Notes under the pieces: model-generated
Databases searched by the model: none
Told to the model about the DNA's origin: nothing
The model's input: the letters and a program-made list of their open reading frames with translations, nothing else
Source of the DNA: Vermamoeba vermiformis
Lineage: Eukaryota
NCBI GenBank assembly: GCA_045837725.1
Contig: JBEWZL010000265.1
Coordinates: forward strand, 62,001 to 83,667
DNA length: 21,667 nt
Reading direction: 5' to 3'
Made by a program: the position numbers and the translations under genes
Part shown: piece after piece, positions 3,793 through 21,301 of the stretch
Position numbering within the stretch: the first letter of the stretch is position 1
Layout: the number at the start of each line of letters is the position of its first letter

Positions 3793-5207
3793 CAATTTAT
3801 GTAAAAACAGGTTGAATTTGCAGTGTTCAACGAGTTATTTACTTTGAATTCAATCATGACTGTCTTCCATCTCAATTCATGACAGCTGACATAGCTTATT
3901 GTAAATTTCATGTAAAACAGGTTGAATTCGGTGTATTCAACCAGATTTTCGTATTAACTAGTATGTACTAACAAAATGATAAATTTAAACTTGGTTCGAG
4001 TACGTAGACTAACTTATCTAGTTTATTATAAATTGATCAATCAAAATCAATTGCAGGGTACTTTTCATGGTGTTGATAATCGGTGCCTTCCTCTCCCGTA
4101 AAGAAGGATTCCGCGTCGTGAGGCTCTTCTAGTATTTCCAAGTCGAAATCATCAAAATAACGCTTGAGTACCTTCATTTCCAAGGAATTTCCGAAACTAC
4201 GGGCAATGTAGAGAAGTTCCTTATTGCGTCGATACGAGGCAGCCAACCACAAGTGATCTCCGTCTTCCGCGGTGCTGATGTCAGGGACTTGCCAGTAGAA
4301 GCTCTGGTACACCAAGCATACTCTGTTTATGAACCGGTTGAGAAAGCCAGCAGCAAGACCAAGGCCAAAGCCGTACCTGGGAAGCCCAAGATTGAACGCT
4401 TTGAGTGCAAATTGAATTCCGTTCATACTTCGAGCTACCATCGCAAGTTCGAACAAGTTGCGATTCGGGCGATAACGCTGCACACTCCATGCCTTGAGAA
4501 TTCCTCGGTACGTGCAGCCAAGCGTCATGAGCGACACTAAAAAGTGCCCTGCGAGAATTGGAGACAAGTAAAAGGATTGACAGGCCAATCGTAGATTGAG
4601 AACCGACCTGGCAAACTCTGGGTCGTACTCTACGTAGCCACTATATAGGTCAGATCGTCGACGTCGACGTCGACGAGCTCTAGTTATTGCGACTTGGTAG
4701 GCAGCCCGGATTGCATCGGAGCCAACGTAGCTCCATTCGTCATAATAAATTTGTTCTATTACGAACAAAAGCTGTAAATAATAAATTTGTCAGTAAACTA
4801 ATTAATAAAAATAATTTGTTTGTGAAAAATTTATAGACGAATTATTAATTTTTATTTAGCTTCAAAGTGGTGTAAAAATTAGTTAATAAATATCCTTAAT
4901 TAAAATACTTACGGCATCCTGACTCGGGTATAAATCTGGGTCGTCGCCGTTTAAATCGATGATTATATCTTCGTTGTGCTCCATCCTACGATTAAATATC
5001 TTAATAGAGCTACTATATGTTAAGAAAAGGTACTTACGCTTCAATTGTTGTTATTATTGTTCGTTTTTAAAATGTAATCAACGATTTTTAAAACAATTTT
5101 GTTCGTCAGATTCTCCGCTTTTGATTGATTAAAAAAAAAGCTGGTATAAAGCCCCAATTTATGTAAAAACAGGTTGAATTTGATTCATTCAACAAGATTT
5201 TCGCATT
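3793..5207 (+). repeat. Three direct copies of a 40-50 bp hairpin motif (3793-3831, 3904-3954, 5155-5207) bracketing the minus-strand gene
   Basis: Shared AATTT(C)ATGTAAAA(A)CAGGTTGAATT-N7-TTCAAC, with GTTGAA/TTCAAC forming a stem. Copies 2 and 3 continue with AGATTTTCGYATT. Confidence 0.85.
4037..4984 (-). CDS. Hypothetical protein, about 268 aa, with a possible degenerate or split F-box-like N-terminus
   Basis: Exon 4984-4913 (MEHNEDIIIDLNGDDPDLYPSQDA) joins exon 4771-4037 across a GT-AG intron at 4912-4772 in phase 0. A further 5' UTR intron is likely at 5037-4986. YPSQDALLFVI and VLNLRLACQSFY resemble the two ends of an F-box motif. The gene model is more secure than the domain call. Confidence 0.75.
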
Positions 5208-5267
5208 TATATGAGAAATATCAAAAAACATCGGGGTTAGGGTTGTGAAAGCTGTTTTTGAAAGACG

Positions 5268-6918
5268 ATCCTTCTTTGGCTCAAGAAGGGAATTCAATAA
5301 GAAAGACAGGGAGTGATGAAAATCCCTTCCCCTAGTAGGCAATCCCTCTCTGAGACAGGAAGGGATTTTGAAAGAACAAAGGGAAAAATGAAGGAAATTG
5401 AGGCGAAAATTCCAAAATTGAGGGAAAATCAGGCAAAAACTGGGCAAAATCAGAGATTGCAGGGGTTTCGGCAAGGCAAAAGCAAAGAAAAAATGAGAAA
5501 AAATGTTGCTGGGGGGTGTGGGGGGGTTTCCCCCCCAATGTCTCCAATCATGGAAAATGTTCTGGAGACTTGAACTTGGACAACTTGTATCAGGAAACGA
5601 AGCGCAGATCAAAACATCATGTGCTATCAAAGGAAAAAAATGTTGCTGGGGGGTGTGGGGGGGTTTCCCCCCCAATTCCTCCAAGACAAACTGCTAGGCA
5701 GTAAGGGATTTTAAACTCGAGAAGCAACATTAAAATTTTCGGAAAACTTTCCCTCTCTGAGCCAGGGAGGGAAAAAATATCCTCCCTAAATAAAAAGGGA
5801 GGAAATTCAATAGTAGTGTTTGGAAACAAAAAAATTTCATTTTACTCACCCTCACAAACACAACACCACACTTGACAAACACAAGGCAGCCCACCTGCTA
5901 CTCAAGAAAAGGAAAATCTGCAAAGATGTCGTAAGTACAGTATTTGCAGACAGGGAAGGGAATAGCAAATTTCTAAGTTTTATTCGAAATTAAGAATCCC
6001 TTCCTGAATCAGAGAGGGAAAATCCCTTCCTGAGTCAGAAAGGGAAAAGATTAAAGTTACAGTGAGATAATCCTTTCCTGACCCAAGAAGAGATTCTAAC
6101 TCGAGTTTACAGGCAATCTACCCAAGCTACCCAGATCTTGAACTTGTTAAAGCAAGGAGAGACGAGAAAGGAAGAAGGAAAGCAGCGAAAAGAAGAAAGA
6201 GCGGCCAAGAAGTTACAAAAGGAGTTGGAAAAGCTGATGGGAGAGCCCAAGCCCAATGCCAAGAGCAAGTGGTCCGACAGGTAAGAGAGCAAGGTGAACT
6301 CTAGCGAAAAACTGACAAACGTCCCAGGAGCCACGTGAGCGGGATGCCCTCCGGAAGCTGGTGGATCGAGGCCGACCAAGAGAGAAAGTGCCTTCTGTAC
6401 AAGGGGCCTATCATGGGCAAGAACCAGAAGCTCGTCCAGGAGATTGACCGAGGTGACCACCAATGGGTGGTAGTCCACTTGGTCAAGGGCGGAAGCCAAT
6501 GCTGGCTGGCCCTGGCAAAGGCTCCGGAGCTGGAAGAAAGAGCCTGCCTGGAGATCAAGTCCCACTGGAACCCCGACAAGGTGAACGCCCAGTTGCAGAC
6601 CTGGAACCTGTCTCGCAACAAAAAAGGAGACTTTACCTTCCAGAAAGTCATGGAGGACTGGAAGGTGGAGTACAAGTTGGCGGTGAAGGCAGGAGCAAGG
6701 GAGCCCTCCAACACCAACGAGCTGACCGAAGAGGCTGCCAGGGCCGAGATCGAAGAGAGCCTGGTTCCCAAGGCGATTCGAGTGCGGTCGGAAAAGACCA
6801 AAGAGGAAGAGCCGTTCGGAGATCCCGACGCGTTCCCGGTCGTCGGCAAGACCAAGGTGCTGGAGATGACTCCTCAAAAGGTAAGAGTAAAAATCTATTC
6901 TTGAGCCAAGAAAGGATT
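5268..6918. repeat. Dispersed imperfect palindrome family A (about 27 bp), consensus approximately AATCCCTTCCTGAGNCAGRAAGGGATT
   Basis: Copies at about 5268-5293, 5341-5367, 5748-5774, 5995-6019, 6021-6045, 6069-6095 and 6892-6918. All lie upstream of the 5926-7243 gene or in its introns. Confidence 0.8.
5498..5676. repeat. Two identical 42-bp G/C-rich hairpin elements (5498-5539, 5635-5676)
   Basis: AAAAAATGTTGCTGGGGGGTGTGGGGGGGTTTCCCCCCCAAT occurs twice. TG7-TTT-C7A forms a perfect 8-bp stem. Confidence 0.95.
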
Positions 6919-7608: not shown

Positions 7609-8312
7609 GGTGCAGTGTGGAACTTCCCCTTTGAAAAACTAAAGTTGAACAAGGAGCAGATCCACAAGGAGCCAGGGGTACAGACACATGGAATCCTGCA
7701 AGGAGTGGTTCGTGTGGTGCTGGTCCTAAATACAATCAAAGTCTAAGAGGGGAGGTGCAGCATGGAGCCAACCCTAAAAAAAAATGAAGTTCAAACAAAG
7801 GGCGGTTCCTCAAGGAACCAGGGGGCCAGAAAAACTAAGTCCAGCAACCCCTGGTACCGTAAGGAACCGTCCTTTGGAAAAAATTAAAGTCCAAAGAGGG
7901 GCCGGTGCCAAAAGGAACCGACCCTCGAAAATATCTAAGTCCAAACAAGGGCCGGTACGGCAAGGAACCGACCCTTGAAAAAAATAAAGTCCAAGAGGGG
8001 GCAGTTCCTCAAGGAACCGGGGTCAAAAAAAACTAAGTCCTGCAAACCCCGATTCCATGAGGAACCGACCCCTGAAAAAAACTAAGTCCTACAGGGGTCG
8101 GTTCCTCAAGGAACCGGGGGTGAAAAAAAACTAAGTCCTGCAAACCCCGGTTCCATGAGGAACCGACCCTTGGAAAGAAACAAAGTCCAAACTAGGGTCG
8201 GTTCCACAAGGAACCAGGGGTGAGGAAACAAAGCCCAATTGAGGCTAGTTCCCCGCAGGAACATAGTGCTGGGGCAGGCTAAGTCTTGAAAGGGCTGGTT
8301 CCACTTGGAACA
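7609..8312. repeat. Array of 47-51 bp units, each with a 16-bp GGTTCC-N4-GGAACC palindrome and an A-tract-AAGTCC linker
   Basis: Palindrome starts at 7804, 7853, 7904, 7954, 8003, 8051, 8100, 8149, 8200, 8247 (5-nt core) and 8297. Degenerate units lie at about 7609, 7658, 7707 and 7754. Confidence 0.95.
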
Positions 8313-9401: not shown

Positions 9402-9890
9402 GAGAAATTTCATTCGAATAAAATTTATAAAATTCTTCTGCAGTAGATTTTTCTTGCGCTTACTTTGAGATTTAATGCTGCTCAAATGGGTTGCCAATAC
9501 CTCATATCAAGCTGTCTGCAATATATGGGCAAAGAGAAGGTCAACAGGCACCCAACTAGCAAGGTGAGCACAGATCTGAATCCGATCCAAAGTCAATTTT
9601 TTTTTTGCTTTGCTTACTCTCCCTGATGGCAGAAATAATAGGAATTGACGCGGAGCTCTCTATATTAAAGCATAAGTAGCTGGGCCAGTAGAAAGGAGAA
9701 ATTTCAGGTTAATAAACTTAATAAAAATCTTCCACAGTAGAATTTTATTATTTTTAGCGTTGTGAGATTTCATGTGGCTTAAATTGTGATGTGTGCTTCA
9801 TATTGAGCTATCTGCAGTATCATTCAATAGAACAGGTCAACAGGCACGAGATGAGCAACATGAGTCCCCGATCTGAACTCGCATCCAAAG
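9402..9890 (+). repeat. Diverged direct duplication of about 190 bp (9402-9592, 9696-9890)
   Basis: Collinear blocks GAGAAATTTC, CAGTAGA, TGAGATTT, TCATAT..AGCT.TCTGCA, AGGTCAACAGGCAC, GATCTGAA and ATCCAAAG. Confidence 0.85.
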
Positions 9891-10473
9891 GTATTCTGGA
9901 TGCAGGTTGCACAATGGCCCTGCTGACTGCAATGTGCAAAATTAGTGAAAAGGTTTGAGCGTGAAAACCCACACAACTGAGTCAATATAAGGGAGGTATA
10001 ACTGTTGCAGAAGGTTGACAAAATCTCCCCAGAATAATTTTTTCTCTCTAGGGAGATTTCACAACCAAACAAAATCTTTTTTCCAACGGTTCTATTTCAT
10101 TTCAATATTTTGCTGTTATCATGAGTAACACAAATATACGTGTTATGTCAGCAGACCTTGCAGCTGCTGTGCAAAGTCAACAGAGATCTTACGTGGAGAT
10201 CTCAGATCAGTATTGGAAACAGAATGTTCTGGTAAGAATTGCTCAAATAATTAATTTAACTACGTAATAATTTTAATAATAATATTTTAACCTTTACAAG
10301 GTTATTTTGGAGGGTAAAATTGCAATTTAATTTTTTTGTGTCAGATTTGACTTTTTTATTTTCACAGCTCCTCCTAATTCAATATATTTTAATTAAACAA
10401 TATTCCCTATATATTTTTACATATAAATTAATAGCTTTTTAAATAGTCACACCAACTCTCTACTGAGTGGAAA

Positions 10474-13400
10474 ATGGTCACGTGTGCCGAACTCAAGGCA
10501 AATCCCAAGATCTTCAACAAGGCAAATTGCTGTGTCCCAGACTGCAAAGAGAAGGCACAGTACTCGTAAGTAACTCCAATCTATTGTTTTCAAGCCTAAC
10601 TAATCCCTTGTAGCATCCCCACGTCAATAATTGATGATGGCGCAGCAGTGTGCAAAAATCACCTCAGACGCTTCACCATCACGCAAAGCTGCCACCCACT
10701 AAATAAGAAGGAGTCAGTTATTGTTGGTAGAGCGTAAGTATTGTCAGTTTAAATATCTTATTGACTCTAATTTCCTTTCATGTTAGGTTCAACATCCGCA
10801 CTCTAAACCGTGTTGGTCTCAATCGAGTGATCAACAAAATAGAGAAGCATGGTTGGGATTCGAACCAAGGATCCCTCCATGGTGTCATTGTGACAAATGG
10901 CAAGATAAAAAAGGTTGCCATCTTCGCAGGTAAGTAAAAGTAGTTGTTTTTTTGCTTTACTTAGGTTATTAATGGTTTATTGTAGGTCAGCATCGATTTG
11001 AAGCTCTAATTTACTTGTGCGATCTGCACAAGAAGAACTTGGAGCATCAAATCCTTCTTTATGCTTTTGACTCCGAGGTGGAGATGCGAGCTGAAGGACA
11101 CAGCATCCAGTCTAAAGAACAGACTGTGCGTAAGATGTCCTACCTGGAAAAGATCCTCCAGGTGCAGCATTTGGCTCATGAGGCTTATGGGGATACCCAA
11201 GATAATTGGTTTGCAGGCAATCGAACCAAAAACTATTGGGATGCTATTGCTGGTCGCAAACTTCATGGTAAGTTGATTTTTGCTTTAATTAGATCTTTTT
11301 TAACCATTTGTTAAAAGATGTTGAATGGCAGCTGCGGTCGTTGGATTATAATGTACTCAAAGAGCTTTCAACTTACCATGCCAACCATGAGGCAAGGAAA
11401 AAGTTCTTCCAAGTGTAAGTAATACCCAATATTAAACCTCTAAAACTAAAAATAACATGTTCTTTTAGCCCTTTTCTGAAAACTGACCTGCAGTGCTTGG
11501 CAAAATTGCCAAGGAAAGATCAGAAGATTTTCATGGAGCGACAGCAAGCACAGTGGCAGGAGGTTCACCACAAACGTAAGCAACTAGTGTGAGTCATTTC
11601 ACCATTCTAAATCTTTTTTTTAGGTGCTGATGTTAATTCAGCCCAAAATGTTGGCATTATGGCTGAATTGTTTGTTGATCATGCGGTGAAGGCCTTTGAC
11701 AAGCTTCGCAAGCATTACAATGCGCTGGTGAGTTCCTTTTCAATTTTAAATTATTAAAAAAAAAACTGAATGATTCACCCATAGGAGGCACAAGGCAAAG
11801 ACCTTGCTGCATTTAAAAGGAAACTGTGCCAAATTCGAGTTGACCAACAGTTAAGTTGGTCTGCATGGGAAAAGAAGATGGACAACTTCACTTTTTCTGA
11901 ACTTGAGCTGCAGCAACTGGCTGCAGAAAATCCTGCAGTTCCTGTGGCTGGTCAGCAGGAACAACAAGTTGCTGCTCCACCTCTGCAACAAGCAGTTGCT
12001 GAGCAACAGCAAGGAGGAGCAGTGCAGCCTCAGCAGCAGTTAGCTTCTGCTGCACAAGTCCAACAGCCGGTGGAAAATCAGGTGACTCGCCAGGAGCAAC
12101 AGCCATCAGTCCAGGAGCAACAGCAGGTTGTTGCTGATCAACAAGTAACAAATCAGCAGCTGCAAGTGGATGCCCAGACTCCGCAAAAACAAGTCCCAAC
12201 TCTTCCTCCTGCCAACAATAACACTCCTCCAGGGACCCCGATAGATGTTGATGATGAGGAGGAAGCTGAAGCTGGAGAGACCAGCTCAACTCCAAAAAAG
12301 AGAGTGAAAAAAAGAAAGTACGATGGTGGAACTCCTGGTCGTGCCAGAAGAACACCTAAAAAAAATGTTGGTAGTTCCAACACAGAAGACAACAGCCAAG
12401 AGCCTGATGATGGTCAACCAGGCCGTTTCAACACAGCAGGCACCCCGATCCAGAAAAAAGCAGATGTGCAGAAGCAAGATGAAGATGACGAATCAGCTTC
12501 TGTGGACTTGTTTGAAGAGGATGCCAAGCCTGCCCTTAAAATTTTCACTGTCAAAGGAAAAACCCTGCCAATAGCAGCGTTGAAAGATGCAAAGCTTGAT
12601 GTGCTGCTTCTATCCTTGGTGGACAAGGCATGGCGAAGTGATTTTATTGCCTCTTTGGGGCAATACTTGCTTCTTAGTAAGTTATTAATGACCATATATA
12701 CATATTGGCTAATTTCTTTTCAAAGTTGAAGCAAGACTTGGCACCCAATTGCTTTTGCCATTCAAAAGCATTCTCGTCAGCACTAGTGAATCGAGAGCGT
12801 ACTACTTGGCTGGCAATTTTGAATTTACTGAGCCAAGTTTCAAAGGCTTGCATGAGAAAGTCTCGCTGATTATTGAGGTAAGGATAGAAACCTGCTTGTG
12901 CAGATCCAAAACCAGATCTGAATCATTTTTTTTTTGTTTTTTTTATTTGTTTGCCTTATAATACAGCTCTTTATATTTATATTGCCAGCAATAGAGGCTA
13001 AATAACAATCAAATGCGATTGAAATTTCCTTTTAATAAAATTTATAAAAATCTTCTGCAGTAGATTTTATCATCTTTAATGTTCGTAGATTTACAGCGTG
13101 CTAATTCTAGCTTGTACAGGAGTATCCTCCACTCAAAACCAAACGCTTGGCAGCAGTGTTTTACTGCATTCAAAGATTCATTGCCTCACGTAAGTTTTGA
13201 ACAAACTTTTGTTCCTCTGCTTCTAATCTCACCTCATTCTACAGCAAATGACATGATTGTTGGTCTCCTTGAACTCGATGACATGGCCTTCTACGGGGAA
13301 GGTTCCCAGATCATCATGTACTATGGTGAGCAAGTTGCTGCCGAGGGAGGAGAAAAAGATTTCAAAGCATATTCTCAACCCCAACAGGAGGCTTTGGCTG

Positions 13401-14933
13401 ACGTGCATTGCCTGTGCACCACACTAGTCAACGCAGTTGGGGAGAAAGCTGTTGTAACGTGGGAAGAGGTAAGCATAATTAACTTAATCAATTTGAAAAA
13501 AACCAATTAATTATTTTTTTCAGGCTTTAAATCAGCAGCACACCAGTGTTGTGAAGCCAGAGGTCTTTCCTCGTTTATTGTACGAGAGTTACAAGCCTTC
13601 AAGTGCAGTTACCTTTGTGAACACGGGCAATGAAAGCATTTTGTTCACAAAGGAAGTGCCAGCAGGTGAAGAACCCAGGATTGGCTGTGTCTCTCGTAAG
13701 TACTTAGTTTACTAATTATTATCTTTATTTTTACTATTATTAACACCCTTTGCTAATTAGAGGGTGAAGTGCTGCCTGAGATGCTAATCAAGCGCTGCCA
13801 AGCAATCTTTTTTGGTTCTCCATTGAGTCATGGTGTTCTTCCACAGCAAATGGCTTCCAACACAAGTGCATTGGCTGGTTGTGTCAATGAATTCACGTGG
13901 CTCAACTTCCATGCCTTTTCAGCAGTTTTGATGGTGCCACACAAAGCTCCACTTGTTTTGTTTCATGCAGGAACAGCAAATGGGCGGCTCATTTTTGCTG
14001 AATCTAAGTCATTAAACCCTTGGTGTAAGTTTTAAACATATTTTATGTGGAGCCTGTTTCTTAATTACCAAAAAATTCAGCCCAGGAAGCCAAGGATGAT
14101 CCAGCAAACAACTTCAACATAGTTATTGCTAAGCCTGGTGAAGTGCTTCACATCCCTGCTACTGCTAACCCATTTTGGCTTGCTTACTACCCTGACACTG
14201 ATGTAAGCAATTTAGTTAACATTGTTTTGTCTCTACTAACAGGAGTAATGTTTACAGGAGGGAATCAACCAAAATGCCACTGTCCTTGGGTATAGTTATT
14301 ACCCTTGGACATCATTTTTCAAGCGATTCACAGCATCTCCAGTTGTGGATCTTGGATCGTGGTTATTTTGGTTGCAAGTGCAGGACCATGCACTTCCTGC
14401 AAATGCTGAGACTGTCGGGTTTGGCCACTGTTTAGCAGAGTGGTTGGCATATCTTTCCACTGCTCCTGAAACAAAGTTTGCTGCTTCTTCCCTTGCATAC
14501 GTCCATTGCAGCAAGTGCTATGTTCCTCTTATCCATCTCTTGTTCAGAAAAGATCAGGAATCTCGCTGCTTGGAATGCTCTGCAGAGTGGGGCTTTGAGG
14601 GTGTGGAGGTGTGCTGCTCTTCAAAGCAGACTGTCCATCTTGATTTTTGGATTAAAATTGTCGAGTAAGTTTTAGCTGCAATGTTTTCAAGTATTAACCA
14701 TTTTTGCAAGGAAATTACTCTCACTATTGGCTGCACATGGTCTTACTAATGAAGAATTGGTCAAAGCCTGCAAGTCGGCAGCACGAGCAGAAAATTTCAT
14801 CTTTTCCCCTCCAAAACTGGCACCTCCTAGTATTGCTCCTCTCACGCGCCTTCTTAAACCCAAGACAAAGCCAGTGCATCCACCACCAAAGGCTGATGAA
14901 GAGCCTGCAGCAAAGAAGGCAAAAGAGAACTAA
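10474..14933 (+). CDS. Multidomain protein, about 1156 aa: C-x4-C...C-x2-H Zn-finger-like motif, ParB/Srx-like domain, Q-rich/acidic linker with basic NLS-like patch, degenerate JmjC/cupin-like domain, CxxC...CxxC KDM6-type Zn module
   Basis: 16 exons join without stops, all through GT-AG introns: 10474-10565, 10614-10733, 10787-10929, 10986-11267, 11318-11414, 11469-11575, 11624-11727, 11785-12676, 12726-12877, 13120-13189, 13245-13468, 13524-13695, 13761-14024, 14081-14202, 14258-14664, 14711-14933. Motifs: NIRTLNRVGLNRVINKIEKHGW, IFAGQHRFEAL, MSYLEKI, LAKLPRKDQ; KPGEVLHIPA; HCSKCYVPLIHLLF...RCLECS. The gene structure is more certain than the domain names. Confidence 0.85.
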
Positions 14934-15220
14934 AGCCCAAGGGAGACTCTGCTTCAATCATTTTTTTTGGCACTTTTGTTGTTTTTGTTTTGTTTTACAT
15001 AAATAGTAGTTTTTCAGCTATATTGACTCTGATTTGGCCTATTCTCATTTAATTTTGTCTGTTTTTAGTCCACAAAGGGACTTTTGACACTCAAAACCTA
15101 ATAATTTGACACCCAAAAATAAACCCGCCAAAAATATAATGGGTTTTTAGAATCCAATCCTGTTTGTATCTCTATATTGATATTATCACACACAAAGCAT
15201 TATTCAACACTCACGCAACA

Positions 15221-17179
15221 ATGTCCTCCAGTTCCAGCGAAGAAATAAGCTTCTCCGAGCAGATGGCATCTTCAACAAGTTCAGATGTGGATGACTCATT
15301 TGACCAAGTAAGCAAATTATATGATAATATATTTACCACAACGATTGTGCCTATTTTACAGTTATATTACTGTAAAGAGACCATTAAAGTTGTATATTTA
15401 TTTTCCATCTTGGGTTTTTACCTGGATGTCACGTCAAAAAATTCCCCTTTGGTGTCAAATTATTCTCTTTATAATTTATATACAAAATTAAGGAGCAAAA
15501 AAGCTCAAATTAAAAAAAGACTTGCTGAAGATGATATTCAAAAACCTTCAGATGTTACATCCCTCGTTAAAGCAGCGAAAATGAGTGCAAATTCGCTCGT
15601 TCGCTACTCTTCATTATTTATGTTGTGCAAAGATAAAAATTGTCAAATTGCAAATGTTTTAGTCGAGCAATTTAAGTTGCAGAAGGACTTTGTTGATAAA
15701 CATGCTGAAATCATTGCGGAAATGAAAAAATTCTTTGTTGAGTGCAAATCTGCACTTAGTAATGAGCAAAAGACATCCCGCAAAAGGTCTCGTGATTCTT
15801 CTGAACCCTCTGATGATGAGCCTCCATAAAAGACAGACGAAATTGCTCAGCGAAAGGCGAATCTGGATGCGATGGCAGCTGCAAGATCTAAACGTCCAGT
15901 TACCATTGAGTTAAGTCAGGAGTCAGTTCAGGAGGATGATGATGATGCCCTTGAAGATGATGGCCTGCATCTCGACTTTGGCATTGATAATAGTGGAAGA
16001 CAAACTTCAACTATTGTTCATGATAACGCGACCGAGCCATTGCAACACCTCGAAGAGATTATTAAGCAAAGCCAGAAATTATCTACCCTGGAAGCCTTTC
16101 AGAGCCAAGGTGAGGAGGCAACTGTTGCACAGAGAGCCTCCAAGGTTGCTATTGACATTCTTCGAAGCTTCTCTAAATTTGGCATATACCTTCGAATTCA
16201 GAAGAGATCTGCCAAATATTCGCTGCTTGGAATCGGTAATATGTATTCTGAGTCTTACCTTAACCTTTTACCGCATGAGAACATTGATATTATGGTTGCT
16301 TGTGGAAAAAAGCCTCCAGCCTCTTCTGTTGTGAAGAAGATTGTTAACAAGGAGGAAGAAGAAGCAGATAGTATCCTATCTGCAGCAACAAACAACCTTC
16401 TCAATGCAGAGCAAGTAAAACAGCTGAAATCAGCTGTGTTTGCCAAGTCGCTTTATGCTCAAGTAATGAAAGGCAAGGATAAACTGACCATTAATGCAGA
16501 GAAAGCTGAAACTCTGGCATTTTCTCCTGATCTTCTCCATAATCTATTCAAATCCACGGATAAGAACAAGTTCTTGAAAGATGAGCTGTCCACAGAAGTG
16601 AAAATCAATGAATTTCTTGCAGGTGTTCTTGAAAAATCACATGGTGCTTGCAAGGTTGAGCATGAAATTCTTGCAGCAAAGAAACTAAGACTCTTTGCAA
16701 TCGGTTGGATCATTCATGAGAAGGCAAAAGACTTCCACACTCAATTGACTGCAAAGCTTACCAGCAAGAAAACAATTGAAAATGAAGCAAAGGCGGTGGA
16801 AAACCGTCAAAATGCAGAAGAGATCAACAATGAAGTTGCTAAGGAGATTAAACCTGCAGTAAATGCTGCACTTTTGGATTTCTTCAAAACCACCGTCAAT
16901 GATCTCAAGTATAAACGTGTCTTCAGTGGTCATGACTCTGAAATTCTTGCTGCAATATCAAAAGTAACACAAGGAAAGGATGTATTCAGGCACTGGAAGA
17001 ACCAGCTAACTAGATTTTACGCTGTCTGTGAGAAAAGACCTATTTTGCTGTTCTCTTCACTGTCCTATTCATTCTTAGCACGTTACTTTGTGCAACCCCA
17101 TCAAGTTGAGGATGTTTTTAAGCATTTAGAACAGATTAACTTTAGTCCTAGCTTTTGGACGCATCCAGAAAATTGTTAA
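15221..17179 (+). pseudogene. Long helical/charged protein-coding region interrupted by one in-frame TAA (15827-15829); probably the 5' half of the downstream gene
   Basis: ORFs 15164-15829 and 15872-17179 share a frame, and the gap reads through as DDEPP*KTDEIAQRKANLDAMAAARSKR. The likely start is ATG 15221. A GTAAGC donor at 15308 makes the 5' structure uncertain. Confidence 0.6.
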
Positions 17180-17235
17180 TGTGCAAGTAACGCAAAATTT
17201 TTAATATCTCTGTTTGCTTATTATTTTTTTAATAG

Positions 17236-20200
17236 GATGAGCCATTTGAAAGCTTGGTGGAACGCATTGCACGCCTTCGCATTGAAAGAGAGGTCAGCGA
17301 CAAAAATCTACTACAGTAGATTTTATTAATTTTATTCTTGGGAGATTTCCTTAGTCTCAATTACTTACCTCTGCATTGTAGCAAGCTGCTAGTGGTACCA
17401 ATCAAGACGAAAGTTCAACAAGCACGATATTTAGTGAGGTAGGCAGTAATTGGAAAAAGTTTTTTTTGCAAAGTAGTTTTTTCTTGTTTTTTTTTATCTT
17501 TGTAGTAGCTGCAACAAGAAATATTAACGGAAAGCTATCCAGGTAGACACACAGCCAACTGAGCCAGAGACAAAGGTGAAATTTCCTTCGATAAAATTAA
17601 TAAAATCTTCTGTGGTAGAATTTTATCAACTTTATTAAGTTTCAGTTACTTATCCTTGCTTTGTAGGTGGCTAGTTTTGATAGCAATCCAGAGGACAGCT
17701 CTGCGAGCACCATATTTAGTGACAGCAGCAATATTTCCACTGATTTTTTTGTTGATGATGTTTCGATCCGATCTGCAAGCACCATCTTCTCCGATGAAAG
17801 TAATGATGATCCTAAAGGCTCCTCTTGCAGTCAAAGCCAATCCTCAATATGCTACCCATTCATAGCACCGGCAGGACGCAGAGTAAGCAAGGAATCTGAT
17901 GCTGAGGAGAGATCTGCTGGCAGTGACCAAAACAAAGCATTTAGCAAGCAGGCTGCCCTTCCGGCTTTGGAAACAGAGAAGGATAATCCTGTGCATGATG
18001 TTCCTATGTTTTTAGACTGGGCAAACAAGGCATTCCACTCAAAAGATGCGTTGATGGATGCGTTGGTGCCTTTCATTCTGTAAGTGTTAAACTACATGTC
18101 AAGCCAAGTAAATAACAGCACCTTCAAGGGTACGAAATGATGATGGAGGCTATGCTAGTGATGATGAGGTTGCACGTGTAGAGATGCTTAATGAGTTTAT
18201 TCCTCCAACAACTTGGCCTCCTTCAGTCTACACTTTGGAACATCACCATATGGCAACGTCTCTGGAGGTACTAAATAGTTTTTAAGCTTTTTTGACTTAA
18301 TTCATGTTTTAGGCTGCCGATGCATTGGATTACCAAAATGACATTAGAACTTGGATCAGTGATGATGGCAGTTTCTTTGGCTTACCATGCATCAAAACTC
18401 CAGTCACTTTTTACAGCCAACTTGATGCTGATGCAACAGTTCTGTATTCTTCAAAGCTTTCCTTCGTCAAAGAAAAAATGTCAGTGTGCCTTTATCCAAA
18501 GCCAAAGTTAAGGATGCCCAGTTCCAAAGTAACTGTGAAGCAAGGCCTATTGTCCTCAAAATTAAATTTCAAGCTTGGGTATGTTAATGCTTGCATGGTT
18601 GAATTAATAATAACAATTTTCTGTTTGGTAGGGAGGTTAAAAACAGGTTTATTATATGGGTGTGCTTTCCTGCATTGAGCCATGAAGATTATGATCAGGA
18701 TTTCCTCCGCTCTTTTTGGCATGAAGTTATATGGCAGTGTAAGTGCCTACAACCAGCTAGAGTATAGAATAATGTTTTAACACAGCAATTAATTCGGTCA
18801 AACTGGCTGTTCCAACGACAGCACCAAAAGTAACTGCAGATAAAGTTGACATTGCTTTTGCTGCTGGTGTGCCCGGCTTCTCTACTGCAATTAATGCAGC
18901 AGTTTATCCAGCTATTGACGCAGCTGTTAAAAATTTCAAGTGGAAAGCAAAAAAGTGAGTTCTAGCTTGCAAAAATATTTCCCTTTTGCTAAATTATTGG
19001 TAACAGAGTTGAAGTTCTTTTTGTCACGCAGATTTATGGTGATAAAGAAACTCTTCATAGCAAAAAAGATGCCACTGCATTCTTAAGTGATCTATCTGAT
19101 TCCTTTGAGATAGATCGAGTAAAGCTATCTGAGTTGCATTACCTGCAAGACTTGGCATTTGATATTTTGTAAGCACCATGTTTGTAAGATAGACAAAAAG
19201 CTAATATGTTCTTTTAGCCCTGATCCTGAGCTGGAAAATGACAGTTGCTTAAACATTTCATGGAATCCTTTGTTTCTCGAAAGCTTGAAGAAGATCTCTA
19301 CATCCCCTCTCTGTTGGTTGTACAACAAAAAGAATCCAGGTCAACATAACACTAGCTTCTCGAACTTGGGATCTCCATTATTGCAGAGCTTGGATGTTAA
19401 ACACAAGTCAAAAGAATCACCAATTTCAGAAATCAAAGCCTACGCAAGAAGCAGCCAAGAATTCAGGTACAACATGCCCATGAGTCAAAGTTCGTACGCT
19501 ACTCTGCTATTTCCCTTTGAAAGAGTAAATGCCTCATGCCCAGAGAACACTGAATTTCCATCACACTTGCGTCAGAAGTTGAAATGTCAATCTGAACAAC
19601 TGTTCGCTCGAGAAGAAAAAGACATAGCCAATTTATATCTCAGCAACATAGCTTCCAAGAACTATGGTTGCCGTCTTGAAGTGACGTTGGCAGATCCATC
19701 ACAGGAGAGAATTGAGGACGTCTATGATTTCCTTCAATCAACAGCAAAGGAATTTATTAATGTGCACAACTGGCTCTTGGAATTGATGGCAGAAAAGCAA
19801 ATCCCAGAGTGGTGCATTCAATTTAGTCCGTTGCAAGTCATCCCATCAAAAATCGTTGTCCTTCCAGCAAAAATCCAGTATACTGCCATTGACTCCTTCT
19901 TATTCTCCATCTATTCTTCAGTATTCATGCCAGATGGTAAGTTAATATTTTTTTTTAGGCAGTAGCCTAAGTGCTGACTGATTTAAAGGAACAAGAAATG
20001 CTCTTGCTTGTGTAGATTTCTTCTCAGAGGGCTTACAACGACTTGCAATAATTCTGGAGGACTGCTTGCGATTTCTTTGGTGTGGATTTGTTTCCCTTTT
20101 GAAGCACCCTGCTTTATTTTCTGAAATGAACATGGCGCAAGCTTTGAATGAATATGGTCACTTCTACATTGCCCCTGAAATGATAACGATTGCAGATCCT

Positions 20201-21301
20201 GTCCAGTACAGTGTTCTAAAGTCACCTTACCCTCAACGAGACTTTATTGATATGCTAAATGACCCTCAAGACGGTGATGATGCAATTGGTGCCATTGATC
20301 CAAGCCCTGTCATTGGAGCTAGATGCTTCCCTCTGCCTAGAAAGTACCTGCGACTACTTCTACCTGATAAGATGTGGGATGCACTACCAACTGTGCTTCA
20401 AAGAATGACCATTGTTATTGCCAATCCCCAAAATATTTCAAACATATCAATGCCTGAATCTGAATTGCAAACTATCGCTGCCAACCTGCTCAATTTGCTA
20501 TGGAAAGATATTTCGTCAATTATTGGTGCAGAAAATAACGCATGGCTCAGTGTTGCTGCCAGCAAAGAAACAATGCCTTGTTTCCCTGGGTCCAAAGTGC
20601 AACACATCGTGGATTACAGCAGCATCACCCCAATGAAGTTCATTAATTTGATTTGCAGTTACTCTGGACCACAAAGTTTCAATTCTCACAGCCTTCACTA
20701 TTTGAAAGCATGGAAATCAATACGTGAAGAAGTCATTCCCGAGATGAACAAACAAGCAAAATTAGTTTGCCCTCAGGCAGATAGCCGTATTCCTTATCTT
20801 AGTGAGCAGCTCATCATGATACAATTAGCAAAACAAATAACAAAGCTTGATTTGAGGATTTTGCCTTACCCTGGCATCAACCATTTTTGGACGCATCGCA
20901 TGAACGATAGCTCAACGTTAGTTTGGTGTTATTGTTACAATGATGCCACAACTAAACTTGAAACGCTGACAGATGATCAAACAATCAGCCTTTTTGGAGA
21001 TCAGCCAATATTTGACTTCACGTTTTACCGCGCTTTGGTGCACACGGTTGTCTACAATAACCCTCACTTCAGCAAGTTTTCAGCAAAAAAAGAGTTGGCC
21101 CTGCACTGTTTGTTTCACTTGATATCACACCCAGGAAGCAAGGCCAAGAAACCAAGGTACTCACAAGGAAGTTTACGTGACAAAATTCTTGAAACTGGTT
21201 TGTTCGATGAAACCCGTTCAGCAAAGAAGCGTGGGGGGTTTATGCCAAAGTCAGACAGCGAATTATGGCAATTGTATCTCAAATTTGAAAATAAACATTA
21301 A
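17236..21301 (+). CDS. Large hypothetical protein (over 1100 aa of spliced open frame) with no obvious start codon of its own
   Basis: Exons 17667-18079, 18129-18267, 18313-18578, 18632-18738, 18786-18954, 19007-19168, 19218-19936 and 19989-21301 join without stops (1095 aa). Phase-0 exons 17236-17292 and 17382-17438 extend it upstream and share the STIFS repeat. The first in-frame ATG is only at about 18006. Confidence 0.85.

Follow-up and report, generated by a model that had tools for sequence, protein, structure and literature searches.

A constrained 16-exon orphan gene of Vermamoeba vermiformis with a candidate ParB-like motif and a predicted zinc module

The gene model at 10474-14933

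We analyzed a stretch of 21,667 nt from Vermamoeba vermiformis (GenBank assembly GCA_045837725.1, contig JBEWZL010000265.1, positions 62,001 to 83,667 of the forward strand; hereafter the window, numbered from its first letter) and, within it, a gene model at 10474-14933. An initial annotation, made from the letters of this DNA, had described the model as one continuous frame of 16 exons encoding a fusion of a ParB-like domain with an apparently catalytically dead JmjC domain and a KDM6-like zinc module. The frame itself stands: joined by their coordinates, the 16 exons (10474-14933, + strand) yield 3465 nt in one frame of 1154 codons followed by TAA, with 0 internal stops. All 15 introns have AG acceptors, and 14 of the 15 have GTAAG or GTGAG donors. 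Intron length is equally uniform, at 46-65 nt in 14 of 15 cases, the sole long intron measuring 242 nt (12878-13119). A TATA-like run lies at ~10408-10420, 5' of the ATG. Reading by eye, we also noted a possible extra 5' exon, which would run from ATG 10122 to a GTAAGA donor at 10233 and join in frame at the AG of 10466-67.

The model has the following features (P0001 and P0002 are two relatives described below):

10474-14933, + strand: whole gene model; joined frame without a stop, with 16 synonymous to 7 non-synonymous natural variants
10474-10559, 10614-10733, 10787-10929, 10986-11267, 11318-11414, 11469-11575, 11624-11727 and 11785-12676, + strand: exons 1-8
12726-12877, 13120-13189, 13245-13468, 13524-13695, 13761-14024, 14081-14202, 14258-14664 and 14711-14933, + strand: exons 9-16
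10474-10733, + strand: exons 1-2, which hold the start codon and, as a candidate zinc knuckle, the Cys/His cluster C19, C20, C24 ... C42-x2-H45; no Pfam match
10787-11267, + strand: exons 3-4, a candidate ParB/Srx-like module by direct reading, with a GxxR motif across intron 3 (10929 + 10986-10996)
11318-11727, + strand: exons 5-7, ~100 residues C-terminal of the GxxR module
11785-12676, + strand: exon 8, whose composition windows indicate a linker (~residues 355-560) that is Gln-rich, then acidic, then basic low complexity
12295-12318, + strand: basic cluster KKRVKKRK, residues 484-491, a candidate nuclear localization signal
12726-12877, + strand: exon 9, ending in phase 0 at a GTAAGG donor
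12878-13119, + strand: 242-nt gap, interpreted as intron 9; no other intron is long, and two genes, if present, would divide here
13120-13695, + strand: exons 10-12, an ordered region with no known fold and no family match
13761-14024, + strand: exon 13, start of a putative beta-rich core, with NFHAF (H867, 13910-12) at the place expected for HxD/E; AlphaFold2 model of low confidence
14081-14202, + strand: exon 14, with the conserved strand motif PGEVLHIP....PFWLAYYPD; 43% identity to P0001
14122-14160, + strand: VIAKPGEVLHIPA, residues 919-931, by direct reading
14170-14196, + strand: PFWLAYYPD, by direct reading
14258-14664, + strand: exon 15, with a TVLGYS strand, an SPVVDL..W helix and the zinc module; matches P0001 and P0002
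14336-14374, + strand: SPVVDLGSWLFWL, by direct reading
14507-14578, + strand: CxxC-x16-CxxC (C1029, C1032, C1049, C1052), a predicted zinc site; four Cys invariant in three sequences
14711-14933, + strand: exon 16, a stretch helix-prone by composition and a Pro/Lys-rich tail, with TAA at 14931-33

The three C-terminal motifs that the initial annotation had quoted (VIAKPGEVLHIPA, SPVVDLGSWLFWL and the paired CxxC) are thus all present in the frame. The final ~50 residues of exon 8 form the beginning of the C-terminal ordered region, and the cluster KKRVKKRK may be a nuclear localization signal.

Selective constraint and relatives

Comparison of the window with contigs of the DNA run X1 gave 40 differences, 37 of which were itemized; 23 of these are exonic. 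The exonic variants comprise 16 synonymous and 7 non-synonymous changes, as against 762 synonymous and 2700 non-synonymous sites (binomial p = 1.5e-6, with 37 of the 40 differences placed). Exons 1-7 carry 9 synonymous and 2 non-synonymous variants (p = 4e-5), all five variants in exon 4 are synonymous, and exon 11 has three synonymous variants to one non-synonymous. Exon 8 has four of each, which suggests that this low-complexity exon is under relaxed constraint. Across 10300-11840, differences number 11 in 995 exonic nt versus 14 in 546 non-coding nt (Fisher p = 0.036), and the single indel between the window and the X1 contigs sits in intron 3. Because the synonymous excess is found in exons 1-7 and in exon 11, both halves of the model are under selection in their predicted frames. 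Together, these measurements identify the locus as a real protein-coding gene of a eukaryote that purifying selection maintains.

The X1 contigs held further structure over the same interval. One tracks the window to 11850, within exon 8, and then becomes (TTAGGG)n; in at least some DNA molecules the gene seems to be cut short at 11850 and to end in a telomere-type repeat. Other contigs depart from the window after 11764, or join it at 12965 from unrelated sequence. Variant contigs of minor depth (~97-120 of 340-380) over parts of exons 8 and 11 suggest a second, more divergent haplotype or copy. A copy-number claim based on the X1 depth of 350-540 was dropped, as depth is not copy number.

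We then searched for relatives of the conserved C-terminal module. A phmmer search with exon 15, exhaustive over 1.84 billion representative proteins, returned two matches: P0001 (196 amino acids, from a Logan assembly) at E 1.1e-15 and P0002 (117 amino acids, from JGI, labeled 'hypothetical protein') at E 2.9e-4. Exon 14 aligns with residues 6-40 of P0001 at 43% identity over 35 residues (pairwise E 2e-12), and this alignment stops at the final residue of exon 14. There follow 17 unaligned P0001 residues (VS...IK), after which the exon 15 homology begins. The unaligned residues match the expectation for in-frame read-through of a 51-nt GT...AG intron. Because the VS...IK insert falls exactly at intron 14 of the window, the position of this intron is conserved; the family is therefore old and eukaryotic, and very thinly sampled.

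An alignment of exon 15 with P0001 and P0002 (A1) has 23 invariant columns, and all three sequences share the four Cys, the CLEC..EW stretch and the VD..WL helix. The four Cys lie ~69 residues past the last candidate strand, and the site that they form drew only sub-threshold matches to generic zinc-ribbon or LIM families. With the A1 profile we found no related locus in metagenome or viral contigs; word-indexed homologue searches with exons 15, 4 and 13 gave no match, and the ESM Atlas gave no usable match to exons 13 and 15. Six matches to the DNA pattern of PFWLA[FY][FY]PD in metagenome contigs were set aside as chance, having no flanking similarity.

Candidate domains in the two halves

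To place both halves of the product among known folds, we relied on profile, structure and literature searches, together with portions of three papers (PMC12704722, PMC4140284 and PMC13229309) that were available to us in part. None of the 16 exon products has a significant Pfam match, and JmjC, cupin, KDM6, TET/JBP, 2-oxoglutarate (2OG)-FeII oxygenase and ParB are all absent; at permissive cut-offs, too, none of JmjC, cupin, KDM6, TET/JBP and ParB came up. Pfam likewise found no JmjC or cupin family in exons 12-15 or P0001, where such a domain would span three exons. NCBIfam, PHROGs and PADLOC, each run on 8-9 exon pieces, returned nothing significant, and neither did PDB sequence searches with exons 6, 7, 13, 14 and 15, P0001 and the profile A1, in which no JmjC/KDM6 chain appeared at E <= 10. 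The best family scores, all far under their cut-offs, belonged to a HicA-like model (E 0.012), Auto_anti-p27 (0.021), HNF-1_N (0.025) and Sigma70_r4_2 (0.058). All profile and fold searches ran on single-exon, unspliced translations, while intron 3 cuts the ParB candidate and the beta-helix candidate spans exons 13-15. Because introns cut both candidate domains, these homology negatives are weak.

In the N-terminal half, the hydrophobic strand VAIFA stands just before GQHR (G117-Q-H-R120), which matches GxxR, the defining P motif (Box II) of the ParB-CTPase fold (PMC12704722, in part). Exon 3 (47 amino acids) and exon 4 (93 amino acids), between which intron 3 splits the candidate domain, have no ParB/Srx match in Pfam at E <= 5 or in NCBIfam, PHROGs and PADLOC at E <= 1. 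A tblastn search of phages and plasmids with exon 4 gave one chance match (E 8) and otherwise none. Exon 6 (11470-11574) has a sub-threshold Pfam match to Sigma70_r4_2, a helix-turn-helix family (E 0.058; 13.5 bits versus a cut-off of 25.7). This match falls just past the GxxR module, which is the place of the DNA-binding helix-turn-helix in ParB. PDB sequence searches gave no support to a helix-turn-helix in exons 6-7, and that candidate was not retained.

Among the closest described layouts are those of orphan fusion proteins with the ParB-CTPase fold (PF02195 superfamily; PMC12704722, in part), which resemble the window protein in having a GxxR P motif after a hydrophobic strand (here VAIFAGQHR) and in the succession of an N-terminal module, a linker and a C-terminal globular part. 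Unlike them, the window protein has no hidden Markov model match in either exon half, GxxR being the only box found, and its gene is eukaryotic and intron-rich, with a Gln-rich linker and a candidate nuclear-import signal. The same survey, in the part available, names sulfiredoxin as the commonest eukaryotic representative of the fold, and its available main text has 0 mentions of JmjC, cupin, dioxygenase or demethylase. Our literature searches for ParB with JmjC gave nothing relevant among the matches listed; those for ParB-cupin fusions gave, by title, bacterial or archaeal cases only; and those for ParB fused to a 2OG dioxygenase in eukaryotes gave no such fusion among the matches listed.

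In the C-terminal half, the initial annotation had reported that the distal His of a JmjC enzyme is missing and that no HxD/E lies upstream, and both observations are borne out. The position after the PG..LHIP strand is occupied by FWLAY in the window and by FWLAF in P0001. The one HxD/E in the whole 1154-residue product is HLD at residue 1072, past the zinc module, with none in residues 560-1000. As judged from its residues, the C-terminal region is without the Fe(II)/2OG ligand set. PGEVLHIP....FWLAYYPD has a presumed likeness to the JmjC 'PGD.l.iP..WwH' strand pair, and the KDM6 motif strings of the initial annotation are presumed as well. AlphaFold2 modeled exon 13, from a single sequence, as two helices and then three strands, NFHAFSAVL, APLVLFHAG and NGRLIFAES, at low confidence (predicted local distance difference test, pLDDT, 54.9). 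Exon 15, modeled with three sequences, came out mostly as helices (pLDDT 44.3). Submitted to Foldseek, the low-confidence model of exon 13 had no JmjC among its listed matches and 0 matches at E <= 0.001, which is uninformative.

From these features the initial annotation had assembled a ParB-type CTP-gated clamp joined to a dead JmjC domain and a KDM6-type helical linker and zinc domain, which would act as a histone-tail-binding pseudo-demethylase on DNA. We regard this reading as unlikely. KDM6 enzymes contain, besides their JmjC domain, a linker helical domain and a zinc domain whose four Cys in UTY are Cys1278/1281/1305/1308 (Walport et al., PMC4140284, in part). Compared with UTX, UTY and JMJD3, the window protein is alike in its order of a beta-rich part, ~65 helical residues, a four-Cys site and closing helices, and in its strand motif of the 'PG..l.iP' type (PMC4140284, in part). 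The absence of the Fe ligands, extending to the distal His in P0001, would fit a dead enzyme; the three strands modeled in exon 13 (pLDDT 55) are in keeping with a JmjC domain, and the GxxR motif with its fusion to ParB. The window protein differs from KDM6, by contrast, in having no detectable similarity to it, no HxD/E...H triad and a Cys spacing of x16 instead of the x23 of UTY (PMC4140284, in part). Further, Pfam found no JmjC, cupin or KDM6 in the 16 exon products, seven PDB sequence searches, including that with the three-sequence profile, returned no KDM6/JmjC chain, and KDM6 is absent from both phmmer matches among the 1.84 billion proteins. What survives of the proposed fusion is the frame, the GxxR motif, the lack of an Fe(II) triad and the conserved four-Cys module, C-terminal of the likewise conserved PG.hLHIP....PFWLA strand motif; homology to ParB, JmjC or KDM6 was unsupported in all searches.

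A different ancestry for the C-terminal part, from a nucleic-acid 2OG dioxygenase (TET/JBP-type or similar) and not from JmjC, appears highly improbable to us, and we would give equally little credence to the view that the gene is a eukaryotic, fused and inactivated counterpart of phage pairs in which a ParB-dependent enzyme oxidizes 5-methylpyrimidines. One subclass of phage T-dioxygenases, of the TET/JBP family, requires a ParB-like activator that is encoded beside it (PMC13229309, in part). This pairing of a 5-methylpyrimidine dioxygenase (5mYOX) with a ParB-like protein is the only described functional pairing of both module kinds found in our literature searches, and it resembles the window gene in bringing a ParB-like module together with a candidate double-stranded beta-helix protein (PMC13229309, in part). 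The top PDB match of P0001 is also an Fe/2OG dioxygenase, AusE, with LLHIP aligned to its HxD strand; at a non-significant E of 0.74, it is noise. No Pfam scan returned a TET/JBP or 2OG-FeII oxygenase family, there is no HxD and no distal His, a 2OG-binding Arg is not evident, and exon 15 has no relative in viral contigs. In the phage system the two proteins are separate and the Fe/2OG enzyme, a member of the TET/JBP family, is active (PMC13229309, in part), whereas the window gene is eukaryotic and probably encodes one polypeptide, with no catalytic ligands and no TET/JBP signature.

Among the JmjC and cupin modules that lack catalytic activity and function in binding or dimerization are those of JARID2 and Epe1 and the cupin of CENP-C. 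The window protein would be like them in keeping a fold, losing the metal ligands and being nuclear; its membership of the fold is putative. Yeast Gis1 is a further example of an inactive JmjC protein, only Rph1 being known to be active, as far as the available part of the source goes.

One gene, its surroundings and its possible role

We consider it very probable that 10474-14933 is one gene rather than two. The rival arrangement, which we judge improbable, places a gene A from 10474 to ~12961, whose self-contained ParB-like product would have a C-terminal domain of its own (~100 amino acids), before a gene B for a beta-rich/zinc protein with its start at ATG 13079 or, if an exon of 5' untranslated sequence precedes it, at ATG 13253. 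Several observations in the 242-nt gap weigh against a single gene. Left unspliced, exon 9 runs on for 27 codons to a stop at 12959-61. An AATAAA lies at 13034-39, and an open reading frame (ORF) at 13064-13510, with an ATG at 13079, is open in the frame of exon 11. The gap is also about the size of the spacer that separates the model from the next gene (14934 to ~15221, ~288 nt), every other intron being 46-65 nt long. The X1 contig that enters at 12965 from unrelated sequence would favor two genes as well, as would the phage case, in which the ParB-like partner and the dioxygenase are separate neighboring genes (PMC13229309, in part). Against this division, a GTAAGG donor sits exactly at the phase 0 end of exon 9. 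Six in-frame GT[AG]AG..YAG paths into exon 11 exist over 12878-13244, all from the donor at 12878 and among them the 70-nt exon 10 of the initial annotation; in dinucleotide shuffles of this interval, any in-frame path with a consensus donor arose in just 16 of 2000. Exon 10 has no stop in the frame required of it, and the intron after it (GTAAGT...ACAG, 55 nt) is a textbook one.

A ~72-nt copy of a dispersed repeat lies within the gap and accounts for part of its extra length. This repeat, of ~70 nt, has a near-palindromic core (GAAATTTC..AATAAA..ATCTTCTGCAGTAGATTTTAT) and occurs at these places:

9404-9475, 9698-9769, 13021-13092, 17299-17348 and 17580-17640: copies of the dispersed repeat

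The copy at 13021-13092 is the one inside the gap, and in the downstream gene the copies at 17299 and 17580 fall within candidate introns. An inverted repeat of 37 nt is also scored for the pair at 17299 and 17591. Rfam has no match for the repeat, and Rfam and tRNA scans of the 242-nt gap were empty. Candidates for its nature are a miniature transposon and an element carried in introns. Its use as a marker of gene ends was dropped, as copies also lie within candidate introns.

It is very doubtful that the locus is a silent, decaying gene, with a frame that is still open but no longer expressed or functional. The observations that would fit decay include two that also count against our gene model. 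In three raw-read RNA runs that share the species label of the best-matching DNA run, 0 reads fall on any exon; the signal is confined to artefacts at three poly-A/poly-T tracts (11748-65, 12926-52 and 14974-96), where 93-94% of the mapped reads continue into unrelated sequence. Expression and the splice junctions are therefore putative; the runs may stem from a strain without the locus, and no neighboring gene served as a control. At intron 1, the in-frame donor at 10560 is a weak GTACTC, and a perfect GTAAGT at 10567, 7 nt further 3', would break the frame and lead to a stop six codons into exon 2. The X1 contig that ends at 11850 in (TTAGGG)n would add at least one truncated copy. The synonymous excess of 16 to 7 (p = 1.5e-6) and the restriction of the only indel to an intron argue, by contrast, for current or very recent constraint, and all 16 exons are open with consensus donors at 14 of 15 introns.

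The surroundings of the gene bear on one further claim. The initial annotation had suggested that the protein possibly shields the element from host silencing, and for this we found no basis. Pfam scans of the window's 53 other ORFs that reach 70 amino acids recovered only Synapsin_C and the related ATP-grasp family CPSase_L_D2, with no transposase, reverse transcriptase, integrase or viral family among them. A repeat scan gave no terminal repeats framing the gene, the window holds no paralogue of it, and exon 15 and two neighboring ORFs have no relatives in viral contigs. There is thus no sign of a mobile-element location, because neither mobile-element or viral families nor viral-contig relatives were found, and the locus looks like an ordinary chromosomal gene that is not marked as mobile-element cargo. 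The only recognizable family in the window is that of one upstream gene:

1329-1850: two exons of an upstream Synapsin_C-type ATP-grasp gene (E 5.9e-6 and 3.9e-10)

Downstream of the 16-exon gene, the interval 15222-17179 holds an ORF from ATG 15222 to TAA 15827-29 and another from ATG 15871 to 17179, in the same frame and separated by one stop and 41 nt. The pair could be a nonsense allele, a case of read-through or two tightly packed genes. The corresponding ORFs, 15140-15826 and 15830-17176, have no family match, and the latter has no PDB match either. A large multi-exon orphan gene follows at 17227-21301 (+ strand), with ORFs that include 280 and 439 amino acids and no relative in Pfam, PDB or viral contigs. 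Elsewhere in the window, 7778-8215 is a tandem array of 49-50/100-nt units that form successive hairpins (28-nt arms, 93% complementary), for which Rfam gave only sub-threshold miRNA-like scores. The interval 5100-6100 is rich in repeats, with two 50-nt copies that contain long G and C runs at 5498-5547 and 5635-5684 (96% identical) and several inverted repeats of 25-30 nt of the TCCCTCTCTGAG type.

Taken together, we lean toward a composite reading, which we hold to be somewhat better than an even chance, in which one spliced 16-exon unit encodes an orphan nuclear protein of ~1154 amino acids that acts as a non-enzymatic scaffold on DNA or chromatin. Its N-terminal part would consist of the Cys/His knuckle and a nucleotide-binding module of ParB/Srx-like type that bears the GxxR motif; a linker of ~200 amino acids, Gln-rich, acidic and basic in turn, with the basic nuclear-import signal, would follow; and an ordered C-terminal region of ~590 amino acids would lead from the beta-rich part through a helical part and a zinc ribbon to the final helices. 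The knuckle and the GxxR module would engage DNA, possibly in a nucleotide-gated manner, and the C-terminal region, free of metal ligands, may serve as a binding or dimerization holdfast. Such a layout of N-terminal gate, linker and C-terminal holdfast would be that of a ParB clamp. Some points count against this scaffold. Its mechanism is one that we infer, and no domain was recognized by profile, PDB-sequence or language-model searches. The ParB reading consists of a four-residue motif, which carries little weight alone, and a presumed pattern, and evidence of conservation is thin, the known relatives being just two and both fragments.

A more specific form of the scaffold is tentative and, in our estimate, unlikely. 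Here a nucleotide-gated clamp with the ParB-CTPase fold would be fused to an inactivated beta-helix of the JmjC/cupin type and a KDM6-like helical/zinc module, as a non-catalytic eukaryotic counterpart of the phage ParB and dioxygenase pairs, and the dead oxygenase would serve as a chromatin reader or a dimerization holdfast.

The secure result is a constrained gene model and an orphan family that has two fragmentary relatives among 1.84 billion representative proteins. If the more specific, fused form is true, it would be, within the literature searched, the first chromatin protein of a eukaryote to be described with a ParB fold of the non-sulfiredoxin kind. If both domain readings are true, the ParB nucleotide-switch fold would have been recruited to eukaryotic chromatin along with a dead oxygenase fold. 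Such a protein would echo the newly described ParB-dependent dioxygenases of phages and would offer a tractable test case for clamps that work without ParA or parS.

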